From Escherichia phage HY03, in the sequence record NC_031047.1: 64,000 bases of DNA; one strand, given 5' to 3'. A model generated the notes under the pieces. The model saw only the letters and a program-made list of their open reading frames with translations. It was not told the DNA's origin and did no database searches. This document shows, piece after piece, positions 1,358 to 45,065 of the stretch. Position 1 is the first letter of the stretch. Each line of letters opens with the position of its first letter. A program made the translations under genes and the position numbers.

Positions 1358-1566
1358 ATATACATTATCCACATCCATATGACCCAAAGAATAAGGCAGT
1401 AATTATTCGTCAATGGGAACGCATTTGCCGTACTAAATGCCCAATTAATAGTCCGCATGATGTAGATAAAGACTATATTGGAACATTCGTTGAATATACC
1501 TTTATTGATAAGAAAGGTCGTAAACAACACGTAGAAGAATATTGCTTAAAGGTGCAATGGTTATGA
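1354..1566 (+). CDS. hypothetical protein
   Basis: in-frame ATG of track ORF 1339..1566 in ATGA overlap with upstream stop. Confidence 0.45.
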   Translation: MNIHYPHPYDPKNKAVIIRQWERICRTKCPINSPHDVDKDYIGTFVEYTFIDKKGRKQHVEEYCLKVQWL

Positions 1567-1748
1567 GTCTGAGTAAAGGACAAAAAGATAAATTGTTTGA
1601 GCTTATCCATGAACTTCTAGATGAGCATACAGAAGCAAACACCTTTTATGATGAATACGGCCCGCTATCTCCCGAACAGCAAGAAGAATTTGCTGACCGG
1701 TTTGATAAGAAAGAAAACGAATTAATAGCTTATGTGAATACGCTTTAA
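1557..1748 (+). CDS. hypothetical acidic protein
   Basis: track ORF 1542..1748; first in-frame ATG after AAGGTG; start uncertain (1557 or 1563). Confidence 0.45.
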   Translation: MVMSLSKGQKDKLFELIHELLDEHTEANTFYDEYGPLSPEQQEEFADRFDKKENELIAYVNTL

Positions 1749-1757
1749 GAAGGTGAT

Positions 1758-2339
1758 ATGGCGAGTTTAATTTTTACTTATGCAGCAATGAATGCTGGAA
1801 AATCTGCTTCTCTTTTGACTGCTGCGCATAATTATAAAGAACGTGGAATGAGTGTATTAGTTCTTAAGCCTGCTATTGATACTCGTGATTCTGTCTGTGA
1901 AGTCGTTTCTCGCATTGGAATTAAACAGGAAGCTAATATTATTACGGATGATATGGATATTTTTGAGTTCTATAAATGGGCTGAAGCACAAAAAGATATT
2001 CATTGCGTATTTGTAGATGAAGCTCAGTTTTTAAAAACTGAACAAGTGCATCAATTGAGTCGAATTGTTGATACATATAATGTTCCTGTTATGGCTTATG
2101 GATTAAGGACTGATTTCGCTGGAAAATTATTTGAAGGTTCTAAAGAACTTTTGGCGATTGCAGATAAACTTATTGAACTAAAAGCAGTTTGTCATTGTGG
2201 TAAAAAAGCTATTATGACAGCTCGATTAATGGAAGATGGAACACCAGTTAAAGAAGGTAATCAAATCTGTATTGGTGATGAAATTTATGTTTCTTTGTGC
2301 AGAAAACATTGGAATGAATTAACTAAAAAGCTCGGTTAG
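1758..2339 (+). CDS. tk: thymidine kinase
   Basis: 193 aa; P-loop NAGKSASLL and C-terminal Cys cluster; matches recalled T4 Tk. Confidence 0.95.
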   Translation: MASLIFTYAAMNAGKSASLLTAAHNYKERGMSVLVLKPAIDTRDSVCEVVSRIGIKQEANIITDDMDIFEFYKWAEAQKDIHCVFVDEAQFLKTEQVHQLSRIVDTYNVPVMAYGLRTDFAGKLFEGSKELLAIADKLIELKAVCHCGKKAIMTARLMEDGTPVKEGNQICIGDEIYVSLCRKHWNELTKKLG

Positions 2340-13714: not shown

Positions 13715-13925
13715 TAATTTAATTCAGGCTCATGTAAAACCGGTCTAAACGGGGAACCTCTCTAGTAGACAATCCCGTGCTAAATGTTCTTTTGAACTAA
13801 ATGCCTAACGACTAACCGTGATGAATGTAGCGGTGTAGAATAGAAGCTAATGCTATTCGAAACGGCCGGCATCGAAAGATGAAGATATAGTCTAATCTGC
13901 ATGGCGACATGCAGCAGTCATCTTG

Positions 13926-13933
13926 TATAAATA
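13926..13933 (+). promoter_or_regulatory. T4 late promoter box TATAAATA
   Basis: exact TATAAATA 29 nt upstream of the intron ORF ATG. Confidence 0.6.
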
Positions 13934-13962
13934 AGATTATCTTATGAATACGAGGTGAAACA

Positions 13963-14733
13963 ATGAAATGGATAAAAAGACGTTGTACTAAAATAAAAGA
14001 TAAAGACGCATTTACATACTTAGTTAAGTTTTCTAATGGCGACATTTATATCGGTTATAAAAAATTTAGAACAATTAAAAACAAGCCCACAAACTGGAAA
14101 ACTTACACAACGTCATCTAAGTATATAAATGAACGCTTAAAAACTGATACACCTACTAAATGGATAATTTTAAAAACATTTGATAGTTATAAAGATGCAT
14201 TAAAACATGAAGAAGAGGTCATACGTAAATATTTTTATAGCAAAAAATGTTTAAATAAATCCATAGGCGGTAAAAAGTTTTATAAGCATCCGGATACTGA
14301 AGAACATATTCAAAAATTAAGAGATGCTCATAAGGGTAAAGTGTTATCCGAATCTCATAAAAACAATATAAAATCTTCTGTGGCTGAATATTATGCTAAA
14401 AACAGAAGATCTAAGGAACATGTGCAAAATAATATCAATAGTCGAAAAAGTAAAAAACAAGTATCGATAAAGCTTAAAAATAAAACTTTTAGAAGTTTTA
14501 AAAAAGCAGCGGAATATTTAAATTGCACTGAAAGTGAAGTCGAAACTCATCCTCTTGTTTTGAGTATTAAGACTACTATTCATAAAGTTCCTGAATATGT
14601 GGTTGTTGACGGTATTAAGTATACGTCTTATATAGAAGCAGCTAAAGCGCTAAATTTTCATCCTAGCACTATAAAAGAACGTTGCATATCTATGGACTAT
14701 CCAAATTTTGTTGTTTCATATAAACGGGCATGA
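13963..14733 (+). CDS. I-TevII: intron-encoded GIY-YIG homing endonuclease
   Basis: 256 aa; GDIYIGYKK motif; inside the nrdD intron. Confidence 0.8.
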   Translation: MKWIKRRCTKIKDKDAFTYLVKFSNGDIYIGYKKFRTIKNKPTNWKTYTTSSKYINERLKTDTPTKWIILKTFDSYKDALKHEEEVIRKYFYSKKCLNKSIGGKKFYKHPDTEEHIQKLRDAHKGKVLSESHKNNIKSSVAEYYAKNRRSKEHVQNNINSRKSKKQVSIKLKNKTFRSFKKAAEYLNCTESEVETHPLVLSIKTTIHKVPEYVVVDGIKYTSYIEAAKALNFHPSTIKERCISMDYPNFVVSYKRA

Positions 14734-17659: not shown

Positions 17660-17968
17660 GTGAAACAGAACAAGATTGAAGTCTATGGAATTCCAGATGA
17701 AGTAGGTCGTTGTCCTGGATGTCAATCAGTTACAAAACTTCTAAAGGAGCTCAATGCTCCTTTTACTTTCTATAAAGTTCTTACAAATAATGGTAAGATT
17801 GAGTATGATCGTCCACTGATTGTATCTCTTGCTAAACGCGCTGGATTCACATCTCTTAATATTCGTTATCCAGTCATTTTCATTAATGATTCTAGACAAA
17901 AGAATATTAAACACTTCAAAGAAACTCTCATTTCACTTGGATATGATAGAGATATCATAGAAGATTAA
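17660..17968 (+). CDS. nrdH: glutaredoxin-like protein
   Basis: 102 aa; CPGC redox motif; GTG start after AAGGAA RBS. Confidence 0.7.
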   Translation: MKQNKIEVYGIPDEVGRCPGCQSVTKLLKELNAPFTFYKVLTNNGKIEYDRPLIVSLAKRAGFTSLNIRYPVIFINDSRQKNIKHFKETLISLGYDRDIIED

Positions 17969-32819: not shown

Positions 32820-33071
32820 ATGGAAACTTTAGTAGCAGGTTCAATTTTTATGGTTTTAGTTTCAGGCGTGTTGGCTATTATTATATACATGCTTCCATGG
32901 TTTATCGCCTTGATGCGTGGGTCAAAATCGACAGTAGGAATCTTTTTCACATCTTTACTGTTTAACTGGTCAATTATTGGTTGGTTTATTACATTTATTT
33001 GGTCAATTGCAGGTGAAACTAAAAAGTCTGCGCAGCCAAATCAGGTAATTATCATCAGAGAGAAGGAATGA
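32820..33071 (+). CDS. imm: superinfection immunity membrane protein
   Basis: 83 aa, two hydrophobic helices; size and position as in T4. Confidence 0.8.
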   Translation: METLVAGSIFMVLVSGVLAIIIYMLPWFIALMRGSKSTVGIFFTSLLFNWSIIGWFITFIWSIAGETKKSAQPNQVIIIREKE

Positions 33072-38345: not shown

Positions 38346-39773
38346 GTGGTAGAAATTATTCTTTCCCATCTCATATTTGATCAAGCTTATTTTTCAAAAG
38401 TTTGGCCATATATGGATTCAGAATATTTTGAAAGTGGTCCAGCTAAAAATACATTCAAATTAATTAAATCTCATGTTAATGAGTACCATAGCGTTCCATC
38501 TATTAATGCGTTAAATGTTGCATTAGAAAATAGTTCATTTACTGAAACAGAATATTCTGGTGTAAAAACACTTATTTCAAAACTGGCTGATTCTCCGGAA
38601 GACCACAGCTGGTTAGTAAAAGAAACAGAAAAATATGTTCAGCAAAGGGCGATGTTTAATGCTACGTCTAAAATAATCGAAATTCAAACTAATGCTGAGC
38701 TTCCTCCGGAAAAACGAAATAAGAAAATGCCGGATGTTGGTGCTATTCCTGACATCATGCGCCAAGCATTATCAATTTCATTTGATAGCTACGTTGGTCA
38801 TGATTGGATGGATGACTACGAAGCACGTTGGCTATCTTATATGAATAAAGCTCGTAAGGTTCCATTTAAACTCAGAATTCTAAACAAAATTACTAAAGGC
38901 GGAGCTGAGACTGGAACACTGAACGTTTTAATGGCTGGCGTTAACGTTGGTAAGTCATTAGGATTGTGTTCATTGGCAGCAGATTATTTGCAGCTCGGAC
39001 ATAATGTTCTTTACATTTCCATGGAAATGGCAGAAGAAGTCTGTGCTAAACGTATTGACGCTAATATGCTTGATGTTTCTCTTGATGACATTGATGATGG
39101 GCATATTTCTTACGCTGAATATAAAGGAAAAATGGAAAAATGGCGTGAGAAATCTACTCTCGGTCGTTTAATCGTTAAACAGTATCCTACTGGTGGAGCA
39201 GACGCTAATACATTTCGATCACTTTTAAACGAATTGAAGCTCAAGAAGAATTTTGTTCCAACAATCATTATTGTCGACTATCTAGGTATTTGTAAATCTT
39301 GCCGCATTAGAGTTTATTCAGAAAATAGTTACACAACTGTTAAAGCTATTGCAGAGGAATTGCGTGCTCTGGCTGTTGAAACCGAAACTGTTCTTTGGAC
39401 TGCAGCACAGGTTGGTAAACAAGCTTGGGATTCTTCTGATGTTAACATGAGCGATATTGCAGAATCTGCCGGTCTTCCAGCAACAGCTGATTTTATGCTT
39501 GCGGTCATTGAAACCGAGGAGCTAGCAGCTGCTGAACAACAACTCATTAAGCAAATCAAATCACGATACGGTGATAAGAATAAATGGAATAAGTTTTTGA
39601 TGGGTGTTCAAAAAGGAAATCAGAAATGGGTAGAAATTGAACAAGATTCTACTCCAACTGAAGTGAACGAAGTAGCAGGTTCACAGCAAATTCAGGCTGA
39701 ACAGAATCGCTATCAAAGAAACGAATCCGCTCGAGCTCAGTTAGATGCTTTGGCAAATGAATTAAAATTTTAG
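38346..39773 (+). CDS. 41: replicative DNA helicase gp41 (DnaB-like)
   Basis: 475 aa; Walker A GVNVGKS; GTG start; matches T4 gp41. Confidence 0.95.
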   Translation: MVEIILSHLIFDQAYFSKVWPYMDSEYFESGPAKNTFKLIKSHVNEYHSVPSINALNVALENSSFTETEYSGVKTLISKLADSPEDHSWLVKETEKYVQQRAMFNATSKIIEIQTNAELPPEKRNKKMPDVGAIPDIMRQALSISFDSYVGHDWMDDYEARWLSYMNKARKVPFKLRILNKITKGGAETGTLNVLMAGVNVGKSLGLCSLAADYLQLGHNVLYISMEMAEEVCAKRIDANMLDVSLDDIDDGHISYAEYKGKMEKWREKSTLGRLIVKQYPTGGADANTFRSLLNELKLKKNFVPTIIIVDYLGICKSCRIRVYSENSYTTVKAIAEELRALAVETETVLWTAAQVGKQAWDSSDVNMSDIAESAGLPATADFMLAVIETEELAAAEQQLIKQIKSRYGDKNKWNKFLMGVQKGNQKWVEIEQDSTPTEVNEVAGSQQIQAEQNRYQRNESARAQLDALANELKF

Positions 39774-39802
39774 TTTACAAGCTGACAAGACTATGGTATA
39801 GT
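39773..39802 (+). promoter_or_regulatory. T4 early promoter with inverted repeat around the -10
   Basis: GTTTAC overlapping gene 41 stop, 18 nt, TATAGT; flanked by ACAAGACTA / TAGTCTTGT. Confidence 0.7.
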
Positions 39803-39831
39803 AGTCTTGTTGGTTAAATGAGGAGATTGTT

Positions 39832-40014
39832 ATGGAATTGGTAAAGGTAGTTTTTATGGGGTTGTTTAAGAACGAAAGCATGTTTACTAAAGAGATCACA
39901 ATGATGAAAGATGACGTTCAATGGGCTACTACTCAATATGCTGAAGTTAATAAAGCATTAGTTAAAGCTTTCATTGATGACAAGAAAGTATGTGAAGTGG
40001 ATTGCCGAGGATAA
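39832..40014 (+). CDS. dmd: Dmd (discriminator of mRNA degradation; antitoxin against RnlA/LsoA)
   Basis: 60 aa; matches recalled T4 Dmd. Confidence 0.85.
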   Translation: MELVKVVFMGLFKNESMFTKEITMMKDDVQWATTQYAEVNKALVKAFIDDKKVCEVDCRG

Positions 40015-40015
40015 T

Positions 40016-40273
40016 ATGCATATTGTTTTATTTAAACCTACTCCGTATAACGTCAGGAAAAATACGCAATTCAAAGCACTTATTGCCGATACGTGGGAAT
40101 TGGTGTTAGATATTCCAGCAGAAGAAAGTCCTCCATTTGGTCGAGTGGAATTTATTAAGTTTGCTGTTCGCCCTACGAAGCGGCAGATTCGTCAGTGTAA
40201 AAGGTATTTTCGTAAGATCGTTAAGCTAGAGAAACAGTTTGTAACATGTGATTACGCAAAAGTTTTAAAATAA
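40016..40273 (+). CDS. hypothetical protein (61.4 position)
   Basis: 85 aa from ATG after GAGGA RBS; track start is upstream. Confidence 0.6.
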   Translation: MHIVLFKPTPYNVRKNTQFKALIADTWELVLDIPAEESPPFGRVEFIKFAVRPTKRQIRQCKRYFRKIVKLEKQFVTCDYAKVLK

Positions 40274-40275
40274 CT

Positions 40276-40305
40276 GTTTACTTTTATTGGAAATTGAGAT
40301 ACTAT
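40276..40305 (+). promoter_or_regulatory. T4 early promoter
   Basis: GTTTAC, 18 nt, TACTAT. Confidence 0.65.
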
Positions 40306-40334
40306 ATAAACATAAACTACTGAGGAGATTAATC

Positions 40335-40628
40335 ATGAAAAAATTTGTTTTTGCTGCAATTTTTGCTTTAGCTTCTTGTGCTGCTCAGCCTGCTATGGCA
40401 GGTTATGATAAAGATTTGTGCGAATGGTCTATGACTGCGGATCAGACTGAGGTTGAAACTCAAATTGAAGCAGATATTATGAATATCGTTGAGCGTGATC
40501 GTCCTGAAATGAAAGCTGAAGTGCAAAAACAGCTTAAGTCTGGTGGTGTAATGCAGTATAATTATGTTCTGTATTGCGATAAAAACTTTAATAATAAAAA
40601 TATCATCGCTGAAGTGGTAGGTGAATAA
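40335..40628 (+). CDS. sp: spackle periplasmic protein
   Basis: 97 aa with signal peptide MKKFVFAAIFALASCAAQPAMA; GAGGAG RBS. Confidence 0.8.
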   Translation: MKKFVFAAIFALASCAAQPAMAGYDKDLCEWSMTADQTEVETQIEADIMNIVERDRPEMKAEVQKQLKSGGVMQYNYVLYCDKNFNNKNIIAEVVGE

Positions 40629-40640
40629 TTAGAGGTTAAT

Positions 40641-40997
40641 ATGTATAGTTCTGAATTTTCATATTTAAAAATGGAAAAAATTTCATACGATTTTATAGAT
40701 GAAAAGGTTTATTACAGTTTCCATGAGCCGCGTTTTAATAGTGAGGTTGGGTTTATTGTAGTAAAAGATAATTTTATTTTAAAAATATATTCAGCATTAA
40801 AGGATTTTCACTACGAAAATATTAACCTAAAATTTGATAAAGAAAACGTTCGTAATTGTGCAGTAACAATTACAGGAAATAAAGGCACATGTGTTATGCT
40901 ATCTGATGAAATTAATGATTTGCTAAATGATGCCGAAAAGGTTGCTATTCCATCTATTGATGACCAAATTTTTAATGCTTTTATGAATAGAGGTTAA
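40641..40997 (+). CDS. hypothetical protein (61.2 position)
   Basis: 118 aa; GAGGT RBS. Confidence 0.6.
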   Translation: MYSSEFSYLKMEKISYDFIDEKVYYSFHEPRFNSEVGFIVVKDNFILKIYSALKDFHYENINLKFDKENVRNCAVTITGNKGTCVMLSDEINDLLNDAEKVAIPSIDDQIFNAFMNRG

Positions 40998-41162
40998 TAT
41001 GAAAACATTTAAAGAATTTATCAAAGAAGATATGGTCGCTGGAGATTCAGGTGGTAATCCTGAAAATATCTCTACTGGAACAACATCAGGCGCTGTAGTA
41101 AATAAAGGTCCTGAACAGATTCCTAAAAAGAAAAAAGAGGAATCTAAAGAAAAAGAAGAGTA
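40998..41162 (+). CDS. hypothetical small protein (61.1 position)
   Basis: 54 aa, below the track cutoff; lysine-rich C-terminus. Confidence 0.45.
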
Positions 41163-41165
41163 AAA

Positions 41166-42194
41166 ATGTCATCAATACCTTGGATTGATAATGAGTTTGC
41201 ATACCGTGCATTAGCTCATTTACCTAAATTCACACAAGTAAATAATAGTTCAACTTTTAAATTGCGGTTTAGATGCCCTGTTTGTGGAGATTCAAAAACC
41301 GACCAAAATAAAGCCCGTGGATGGTATTATGGTGATAATAATGAAGGAAATATTCATTGTTATAACTGTAACTATCATGCACCAATCGGAATATATTTAA
41401 AGGAGTTTGAACCCGATTTATATCGTGAGTATATCTTTGAAATAAGAAAAGAAAAAGGTAAAAGTCGTCCAGTAGAAAAACCTAAAGAACTTCCTAAACA
41501 ACCTGAGAAGAAAATAATTAAATCTCTTCCGTCATGTGTTAGATTAGATAAACTGGCGGAAGACCATCCAATTATAAAATATGTAAAAGCTCGTTGTATT
41601 CCAAAGGATAAATGGAAATATCTTTGGTTTACAACTGAATGGCCTAAATTGGTTAATAGCATAGCACCGGGAACATATAAAAAGGAAATTTCTGAGCCTC
41701 GTCTTGTTATTCCAATTTATAATGCTAATGGAAAAGCTGAGTCTTTTCAAGGACGTGCATTAAAGAAAGATGCTCCTCAAAAATATATCACCATCAAAGC
41801 TTATCCTGAGGCAACAAAAATCTATGGAGTCGAACGAGTTAAAGATGGTGATGTATATGTTCTAGAAGGACCTATAGATTCACTTTTTATTGAAAATGGT
41901 ATAGCTATTACGGGTGGTCAATTAGACCTAGAAGTTGTTCCATTTAAAGATAGACGAGTGTGGGTTTTAGATAATGAACCTCGTCACCCTGACACTATCA
42001 AACGAATGACTAAATTAGTTGATGCAGGAGAAAGGGTTATGTTTTGGGATAAATCTCCCTGGAAATCAAAAGATGTTAATGATATGATTAGAAAGGAAGG
42101 TGCAACCCCTGAACAAATTATGGAATATATGAAAAATAATATTGCACAGGGGTTGATGGCTAAAATGCGGCTATCTAAATATGCTAAGATTTAA
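41166..42194 (+). CDS. 61: DNA primase gp61
   Basis: 342 aa; N-terminal zinc ribbon CPVCGDS...CYNC and Toprim region. Confidence 0.9.
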   Translation: MSSIPWIDNEFAYRALAHLPKFTQVNNSSTFKLRFRCPVCGDSKTDQNKARGWYYGDNNEGNIHCYNCNYHAPIGIYLKEFEPDLYREYIFEIRKEKGKSRPVEKPKELPKQPEKKIIKSLPSCVRLDKLAEDHPIIKYVKARCIPKDKWKYLWFTTEWPKLVNSIAPGTYKKEISEPRLVIPIYNANGKAESFQGRALKKDAPQKYITIKAYPEATKIYGVERVKDGDVYVLEGPIDSLFIENGIAITGGQLDLEVVPFKDRRVWVLDNEPRHPDTIKRMTKLVDAGERVMFWDKSPWKSKDVNDMIRKEGATPEQIMEYMKNNIAQGLMAKMRLSKYAKI

Positions 42195-42391
42195 ATTAAC
42201 CCAACTAAAGCAAATGCTAAATCTACGAATGTATCAAGAGTAACTACTGGAATACTAACGCCATGAGCAATAGCAACTGGCGATAAAACAAAATTCCAAA
42301 GTAAAATTCCTATCATAGCAGAAATAGTAAAAGCTATGCGCCTTTTATTACCTTTGATGGCATTAACAAGTGCCATTAATTTTTGTACCAT
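42191..42391 (-). CDS. hypothetical small membrane protein on the opposite strand
   Basis: 66 aa, two hydrophobic helices; AAAGGAGG RBS 4 nt upstream of ATG on the minus strand; only minus-strand ORF lying in an otherwise non-coding gap. Confidence 0.45.
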   Translation of the reverse strand: MVQKLMALVNAIKGNKRRIAFTISAMIGILLWNFVLSPVAIAHGVSIPVVTLDTFVDLAFALVGLI

Positions 42392-42426
42392 ATGTCCTCC
42401 TTTAAATTAATATTTATCATAAATTT

Positions 42427-42456
42427 GTTTACTTTCTCAGCTTGTTATGATATTAT
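42427..42456 (+). promoter_or_regulatory. T4 early promoter
   Basis: GTTTAC, 18 nt, TATTAT. Confidence 0.65.
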
Positions 42457-42478
42457 AAAATAAATTGCTGAGGATGAT

Positions 42479-43821
<1,343 letters not shown>

Positions 43822-44822: not shown

Positions 44823-45065
44823 ATGGCTAGTACTCGCGGTTATGTTAATATTAAAACATTTGAGCAGAAATTAGATGGAAATAAGAAAATTGAAGGAAAG
44901 GAAATTTCTGTAGCTTTCCCTCTTTATTCTGACGTTCATAAAATTTCTGGTGCTCATTACCAGACATTCCCTTCAGAAAAAGCAGCATACACTACTGTGT
45001 ATGAAGAAAATCAACGTGATGCATGGATTACTGCAAACGAAGATTTGTGGAAAGTAACTGGTTAA
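44823..45065 (+). CDS. soc: small outer capsid protein
   Basis: 80 aa; matches recalled T4 Soc. Confidence 0.85.
   Translation: MASTRGYVNIKTFEQKLDGNKKIEGKEISVAFPLYSDVHKISGAHYQTFPSEKAAYTTVYEENQRDAWITANEDLWKVTG

Follow-up and report, generated by a model that had tools for sequence, protein, structure and literature searches.

A conserved gene for a predicted membrane microprotein, convergent with the primase gene of T-even phages and most likely read from a late-type promoter

In the window analysed here (the whole stretch of 64,000 nucleotides from Escherichia phage HY03, NC_031047.1), the DNA primase gene 61 (41166-42194, plus strand, 342 aa) is followed by a gap of 284 nt, and the next plus-strand ORF begins at 42479. 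The gap is entered from the other side by a minus-strand frame of 66 codons, which runs from an ATG at 42391-42389 to a TAA at 42193-42191 and thus faces the primase gene. The sequence TTTAAA is common to both stop codons, and the two coding sequences overlap by 4 nt. The plus-strand neighbourhood comprises sp, 61.2, 61.1, gene 61, an ORF of 187 aa (42479-43042), dam (43042-821), gene 56 and soc. The small ORF is the sole minus-strand ORF of this neighbourhood outside the plus-strand genes, and the remainder of the 64-kb window consists of plus-strand genes. A first-pass annotation of the sequence had described a 66-aa minus-strand ORF in the 284-nt gap after gene 61, in an otherwise plus-strand region, with a stop that overlaps that of gene 61 and a near-consensus ribosome-binding site 4 nt before its ATG; the coordinates are borne out and all of these features are present, the ribosome-binding site being AAAGGAGG, read from 42403 to 42396. 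From 42100 to 42560 the sequence matches Salmonella phage SG1 (Tequatrovirus, NC_054936.1) at 100% identity, and many T2- and T4-like phages at 94-98%. The features of the locus are collected in Table 1.

Table 1. Features of the small ORF and its surroundings, in window coordinates
Feature	Position	Strand	Remarks
CDS, 66-aa small membrane protein (predicted)	42191..42391	-	phrog_2024; YP_010075196.1 in SG1
Gene 61 (DNA primase) stop TAA	42192..42194	+	overlaps the stop of the small ORF in TTTAAA
Codons 52-65, C-terminal hydrophobic helix with conserved D53 and D57 (predicted)	42197..42238	-	follows conserved loop HG-x2-P
Codons 19-42, transmembrane helix ending in the family-wide WNF-x3-P-x2-A (predicted)	42266..42337	-	AF2 helix 16-42, hydropathy
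Codons 1-18, basic amphipathic N-terminal segment with conserved AIKGNKK motif	42338..42391	-	predicted cytoplasmic
Terminator-like hairpin plus T-run	42354..42384	+ (gene 61 strand)	inside codons 3-13 of the ORF
Shine-Dalgarno sequence AAAGGAGG	42396..42403	-	followed by ACAT and the ATG; spacer 4 nt
Predicted late transcription start	42405	-	6th nt after the box, 14-nt leader; inferred from the -13..-6 placement of late boxes (PMC2988020)
T4 late-promoter-like box GATAAATA	42411..42418	-	consensus TATAAATA, one deviation at -13; 19 nt before the ATG
Early-type promoter	42427..42456	+	GTTTAC (42427-42432), 18 nt, TGaTATTAT; for the 187-aa ORF and dam

The gene has been catalogued before, as a hypothetical protein. 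The first-pass annotation had suggested a look at the interval between gene 61 and dam in related phages, and the ORF is indeed annotated as a hypothetical protein in SG1, T2, RB69 (ORF029w) and VR7 (ORF033w), the T2 entry bearing the text 'similar to RB69ORF029w; RB32030w'. In the T4 reference record, AF158101.6, the ORF is found at 17738-17938 (plus strand) with 92% identity, and nothing is annotated between dam and gene 61. Annotation is likewise absent from the records of JS98 and IME08, and in those of T6, UPEC01 and Klebsiella phage EI the ORF stands under spurious names, 'head morphogenesis protein' and 'DNA packaging ATPase' among them. Literature searches returned no paper on the ORF of the RB69ORF029w / ORF030w family, nor any record, from any phage, of a 5' end of its transcript, of a ribosome footprint on it or of a peptide from it. 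A T4 dRNA-seq preprint gives 150 phage transcription start sites, 22 of them antisense (bioRxiv 10.1101/2024.04.04.588121).

Comparison between phages shows the small ORF to be a genuine and strongly conserved protein-coding gene. Firstly, Nei-Gojobori dN/dS values for the ORF lie at 0.10-0.21 inside Tequatrovirus and around 0.3 from genus to genus (0.10-0.34 overall). Secondly, variable sites are distributed 43/20/57 over the three codon positions. Thirdly, synonymous sites are saturated between SG1 and RB69 (pS 0.79), while the two proteins are still 52% identical. The frame is open over 65-66 codons in the orthologues of T4, T2, T6, RB69 and VR7 and in those from metagenomic contigs. Given this purifying selection and the conservation across genera, the ORF lies far beyond what chance would produce.

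The product matches phrog_2024 over almost its full length (E 1.9e-30, residues 2-66 against profile positions 1-65 of 65). The orthologues in this family, RB69ORF029w, RB32 ORF030w and VR7ORF033w, have the same size and are convergent with gene 61. Nothing sets the window ORF apart from the other members, and the family is without a Pfam model or a solved structure. Absence from relatives had been named at first pass as one outcome that would refute the ORF; it is decisively contradicted by the roughly 1,000 phage records, spread over at least nine Tevenvirinae genera, in which relatives were found. Three subtypes can be distinguished, B and C having been identified from the region downstream of gene 61 in more distant relatives. 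Subtype A, the SG1/T4 type, is present in 691 phage records (tblastn) of Tequatrovirus, Mosigvirus and Gaprivervirus. Subtype B (138 phage records, tblastn) occurs in Dhakavirus, Kanagawavirus, Mosugukvirus and the unclassified Klebsiella phage HMGUkp2 and as the second Gaprivervirus copy, and subtype C (165 phage records, tblastn) in Gelderlandvirus, Moonvirus and Jiaodavirus. The subtypes are homologous, since hhalign aligns A to B plus C with 97.6% probability (E 4e-12), and phrog_2024 is also matched by all nine subtype B and C members tested. They share the core W-N-[FLY]-x3-P-x-A-x3-G-x2-P-x3-[DE], and in the Gapriverviruses an A and a B copy, the latter a diverged paralogue, stand in tandem.

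Within Tequatrovirus the ORF is kept by essentially every genome in GenBank: 501 records carry it at 80% identity or more, compared with 500 that carry gp61 at 95% identity or more. Outside the clade no member was encountered: among 1.84 billion representative proteins a profile search matched six, all from the same family. In Karamvirus EnA02 and Pseudotevenvirus GAP161 plus-strand genes occupy its position. When the family HMM was run against all six-frame ORFs of the window, it found the ORF itself and no paralogue.

The position of the gene is fixed. In all 23 loci compared, from nine named genera as well as unclassified and metagenomic relatives, it lies directly downstream of gene 61 and convergent with it. 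The overlap with the gene 61 stop is usually 4 nt, with some loci showing an overlap of 14-24 nt and some a gap of 9-18 nt. The neighbour on the upstream side varies, and may be the 187-aa ORF plus dam, dam alone, a homing endonuclease, gene 56 or a small plus-strand ORF. Each of the 18 family members examined for a ribosome-binding site has GGAGG, GGAG or GGTGG ahead of the ATG.

A short distance upstream of the Shine-Dalgarno sequence lies GATAAATA, and the promoter of the ORF is most likely this T4 late-type box and not one of the sigma-70 type. The T4 late promoter is TATAAATA, from which late transcripts of either polarity are possible; a list of 50 such T4 sites contains 32 with the perfect sequence, nine with A at -13 and otherwise sites that deviate at some other single position (PMC2988020). 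The box is followed directly by an AT-rich segment, TTAATTTAAA. ATAAATA is present in the interval from -32 to -18 ahead of the ORF in 11 of 14 lineages, whereas 20,000 composition-preserving shuffles gave 0.32 on average and never more than 4; positions -60 to -31 are only 30% identical between lineages. Three lineages, those of HMGUkp2, ZX14 and Kosakonia phage 305, have a perfect TATAAATA. The equivalent box reads GATAAATA in T4, AATAAATA in the T6 type, RB69 and JS98, and CATAAATA in VR7 and KP179. In the 64-kb window ATAAATA is rare, with eight occurrences, both strands together, and neither of the other two minus-strand sites (57687 and 9008) has a ribosome-binding site and ATG behind it.

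The gap between dam and gene 61 in T4 corresponds to positions 42392-42420 of SG1 joined to positions 42963-43050 of SG1, a deletion of about 540 bp with respect to SG1, and the late box is retained because the deletion junction falls 2 nt upstream of it. In the record of phage Lutter a promoter is annotated on each strand here, including an 8-bp feature at the position of the box.

Several observations temper this assignment. SG1 and T4 carry G at -13, which is a rarer deviation than A. The box is no more than TATTAATA in the metagenomic lineage L018, and it reads ATTAAATA in the representatives of Moonvirus and Gelderlandvirus. In KP179, Kos305, PM2 and ZX14 the box is only 3-6 nt from GGAGG, so that transcription beginning at the canonical distance, 6 nt beyond the box, would remove part of the Shine-Dalgarno sequence. 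Compared with T4 late genes, which are read from the gp55-type TATAAATA, the ORF is alike in its 8-bp box one helical turn upstream of the expected start, in the AT-rich segment downstream, in the lack of a -35 element and in an orientation opposite to that of the early genes. It differs in that -13 is G (SG1, T4), A or C in many lineages and not T, and in that the leader from the predicted start would be unusually short.

Two other readings of the upstream region were rejected. A sigma-70 promoter for the ORF would have to be the one minus-strand match at 42501-42474 (9 of 12 positions), which is weak and lies inside the 187-aa ORF; moreover, other lineages have a different sequence in the upstream flank. 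Nor does ATAAATA look like a part of a promoter on the opposite strand: its offset to the MotA-box-like or early elements, judged by eye, differs between T6, RB69 and SG1, and what is constant instead is its distance to the ATG of the ORF.

We infer that the ORF is a late gene, whose promoter stands back-to-back with the early promoter of the plus strand. The late-type box is divergent from that promoter and lies 8 bp from its -35 element. The first-pass annotation had described two divergent and overlapping promoters; the control regions are back-to-back as it proposed, but the core elements abut, 8 bp apart, and do not overlap. The plus-strand element that it had placed at 42427 is indeed a good promoter of the T4 early type. 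The late and early promoters would serve different times of infection. In other lineages the neighbouring element resembles a middle promoter.

The distribution of charge in the protein is highly asymmetric, with all five K/R residues ahead of residue 19 and no acidic residues other than D53 and D57. A clear transmembrane segment is formed by residues 19-42, with a Kyte-Doolittle mean over 19 residues of up to 2.0. Residues 44-66 reach a hydropathy of about 1.6-1.9 in SG1, yet they include D53 and D57; in subtypes B and C the hydropathy of the C-terminal segment is far lower, at 0.4-1.2, and it may therefore fail to cross the membrane. The two hydrophobic helices noted at first pass are therefore found in SG1, while in the other two subtypes the second is weak. 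The AlphaFold2 model, built from an alignment of 11 sequences, has a mean pLDDT of 80 and contains helices at residues 2-12, 16-42 (about 80) and 52-65. The last of these is predicted to be interfacial, re-entrant or a short second span. The most economical topology suggested by the model has the N-terminus inside, one span and an interfacial helix on the periplasmic side; a two-span hairpin is a possible alternative. Sequence searches of Pfam, NCBIfam and the PDB gave no significant relatives, and a fold search with the AF2 model returned only family members and noise from BFVD and nothing from the PDB.

We consider it probable that this is a conserved accessory gene of enterobacterial T-even phages, encoding a cytoplasmic-membrane microprotein of 63-69 aa that is most likely made late. 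After the onset of replication, RNA polymerase with gp55/gp33 and the gp45 clamp would start at GATAAATA, around 42405, and the 14-nt leader with AAAGGAGG should allow efficient translation. Judging by charge distribution, hydropathy and the AF2 model, the protein would insert into the membrane by one helix (residues 19-42), with the basic N-terminus in the cytoplasm. The conserved surface WNF..P..A.(H/Q)G..P...(D/E) and the acidic-faced C-terminal helix would then be exposed on the periplasmic side. Since it is a small protein conserved at one membrane-proximal surface, it most likely acts by binding another membrane protein, of the phage or the host, and not by catalysis. It is tempting to guess, by analogy and with low confidence, that it modulates late envelope events, either the timing or inhibition of lysis or the exclusion of superinfecting phage; no link to lysis or exclusion genes was found by homology or in the neighbourhood.

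One specific form of such a role, that of a holin, antiholin or other lysis-timing factor, appears unlikely. The protein is small, it is predicted to be membrane-embedded and its promoter is of the late type, and the UniProt entry of the OE5505 orthologue is named 'Holin', a name that also occurs in UniRef and BFVD. T-even lysis control involves several small envelope proteins, namely T, RI, RIII and Sp. However, the label on the OE5505 entry carries no attached evidence, and no holin family of Pfam, NCBIfam or PHROG is matched even at permissive thresholds. T-even phages already possess a holin, T, to which the protein is unrelated. Its C-terminus (...DLAFALVGLI) is hydrophobic and without a charged tail, there is no K/R after residue 18, and across the family only a single segment is clearly transmembrane. 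The protein resembles class II holins and pinholins in its small size (about 65 aa), its hydrophobic helices and its probable late expression, but it has neither a family match nor the charged C-terminal tail, its second hydrophobic segment is weak in two of the three subtypes, and its gene does not adjoin an endolysin or spanin gene.

A membrane-level part in defence or counter-defence, whether late superinfection exclusion or the block of a host abortive-infection effector that acts at the membrane, is likewise improbable. It would fit a neighbourhood rich in host-interaction accessory genes (dmd, sp and 61.2). The family is also limited to enterobacterial Tevenvirinae, with six representatives in 1.8 billion proteins, and such a narrow distribution is typical of host-specific accessory functions. 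Against this, its near-universal retention in Tequatrovirus would be unusual for an arms-race gene, and the known T4 exclusion proteins are early and not late. T4 Imm, the 83-aa membrane protein of superinfection immunity, is similarly a small inner-membrane protein of T-even phages. However, the family HMM detected no similarity to Imm (32820-33071) among the six-frame ORFs of the window, and Imm is early and encoded on the plus strand, while the ORF has a late-type promoter and lies on the other strand.

The convergent arrangement also has consequences at the level of RNA. The hairpin at 42354-42379, followed by TTTTT, has an RNA folding energy of -12.4 kcal/mol (z = -2.8); it was detected only in the Tequatrovirus lineage, the corresponding sequences of RB69 and VR7 giving no significant structure. 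A terminator is annotated at its place in the fPS-2 record, and the hairpin at 42354-42384 is likely to be the gene 61 terminator in Tequatroviruses. A gene 61 3'UTR that ends there would be antisense to almost the whole ORF. On the minus strand, a scan for terminators from 39500 to 42250, which covers 2.7 kb downstream of the ORF, found none, and late transcription is therefore expected to continue into gene 61 in the antisense direction. The convergent transcripts should thus overlap extensively, and mutual interference is plausible. The two genes of the convergent pair may therefore depress each other, the late transcript being predicted to be antisense to gene 61 and, in SG1 and T4, the gene 61 3'UTR to the ORF. 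There is some likeness here to type I toxin-antitoxin systems, in that a small hydrophobic peptide is encoded by an mRNA with predicted full complementarity, in this case to the 3'UTR of the convergent gene 61 up to the hairpin. The antisense partner of the ORF differs in being an mRNA tail, predicted from the hairpin, and not a dedicated sRNA, and the hairpin is confined to Tequatroviruses and absent in RB69 and VR7.

It might be supposed that the locus acts mainly at this level, with a convergent late promoter that shuts down primase and early-gene mRNA late in infection and a protein of secondary importance. The conservation of the late-type box, always directed into gene 61, would agree with this, as would the absence of a minus-strand terminator over the distance scanned. 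We regard it as quite improbable as the main role, because an antisense promoter alone needs no 66 selected codons, no strong ribosome-binding site and no tandem paralogue. Moreover, the metagenomic relative L018 has a hairpin with a T-run between the convergent genes, which would stop read-through. An RNA-level role and a protein role are mutually compatible.

A chance open frame in a regulatory spacer, conserved on account of RNA or DNA elements and without a protein, is a very remote prospect: short ORFs are plentiful in AT-rich phage DNA, the gene 61 terminator-like hairpin sits within this one and the T4 reference annotation leaves the interval empty, but the idea is effectively refuted by the frame-specific pattern of substitutions (pS 0.23 against pN 0.03 in the ORF frame, and the opposite in the other two frames), and it is also at odds with an amino-acid motif kept between genera with saturated synonymous sites, the retention of the ORF without the hairpin in RB69 and VR7, the diverged tandem paralogue of the Gapriverviruses and the strong Shine-Dalgarno sequence kept in all members.

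For genome annotation, the result supports the consistent calling of this ORF. T4 is among the best-annotated viruses, and a gene that is missing from its reference record and has homologues in at least eight genera besides Tequatrovirus is worth noting. In other respects it is an ordinary hypothetical gene. The most useful additions to its description are the late-promoter assignment, the breadth of the family with its fixed synteny, the A plus B tandem of Gaprivervirus and the gap in the T4 annotation.

In its strongest form, the interpretation would be that T-even phages, T4 included, carry a near-universal late inner-membrane microprotein with a specific role at the late envelope, and that its convergent promoter could also help to silence primase mRNA; this is speculative, and we think it rather doubtful as a whole. 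In such a role the protein could, for example, be a fourth participant in the timing or inhibition of lysis, or serve late in exclusion. Genetic testing should be easy, because the promoter and the start codon lie in the intergenic spacer. If the late membrane-protein reading is true, one component of the late envelope programme of T4 has so far gone unstudied.

The interval between gene 61 and dam varies among relatives of SG1. In T4 (AF158101.6), a deletion of approximately 540 bp, corresponding to about 42421-42962 in SG1 (T4 locus 2380-2500 vs window 42392-43050), has removed both the 187-aa gene and the early promoter. What survives of the 187-aa gene is approximately 70 nt from its 3' end, out of frame and located upstream of dam.

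The small protein itself also differs between phages. In the Gapriverviruses UPEC01 and VR7, it is present as two diverged tandem paralogues, subtype A (the SG1/T4 type) followed by subtype B; the subtype B copy begins 8 nt after the subtype A copy and has a GGTGG of its own. The VR7 subtype B copy differs at its C-terminus and reads through into gene 61, a sign that it may be frameshifted. In T6 (NC_054907.1, locus position 1501), the start position is occupied by ATT, while all other orthologues have ATG, and the CDS in the T6 record is annotated from five codons further downstream. The ATT may be either a sequencing error or a genuine non-canonical start.

In a metagenomic relative (L018), gene 61 and the small ORF are separated by a hairpin instead of overlapping. 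The hairpin is a possible terminator between the two convergent genes and has no counterpart in SG1 or T4.

Coordinates of features in the window and in related loci
Feature	Location	Strand	Remark
Tandem small-protein pair	UPEC01 locus (L016) 1495-1901		
Tandem small-protein pair	VR7 locus (L014) 1495-1970		
Hairpin	L018 2699-2740		CTAGGG-cttgt-CCCTAG then ATTTT
TATAAATA box	window 2349	+	ATG ORF at 2382
TATAAATA box	window 13926	+	ATG ORF at 13963
TATAAATA box	window 44785	+	ATG ORF at 44823
Further ORF, 77 aa	window 13812-14045	-	ATG start

A further minus-strand ORF lies partly inside a 240-nt gap (13723-13962), near the plus-strand TATAAATA box at 13926. Only three perfect boxes occur in the 64-kb window, each 25-30 nt upstream of an ATG ORF, and they are probably markers of late or dual-expressed genes inside the early region.
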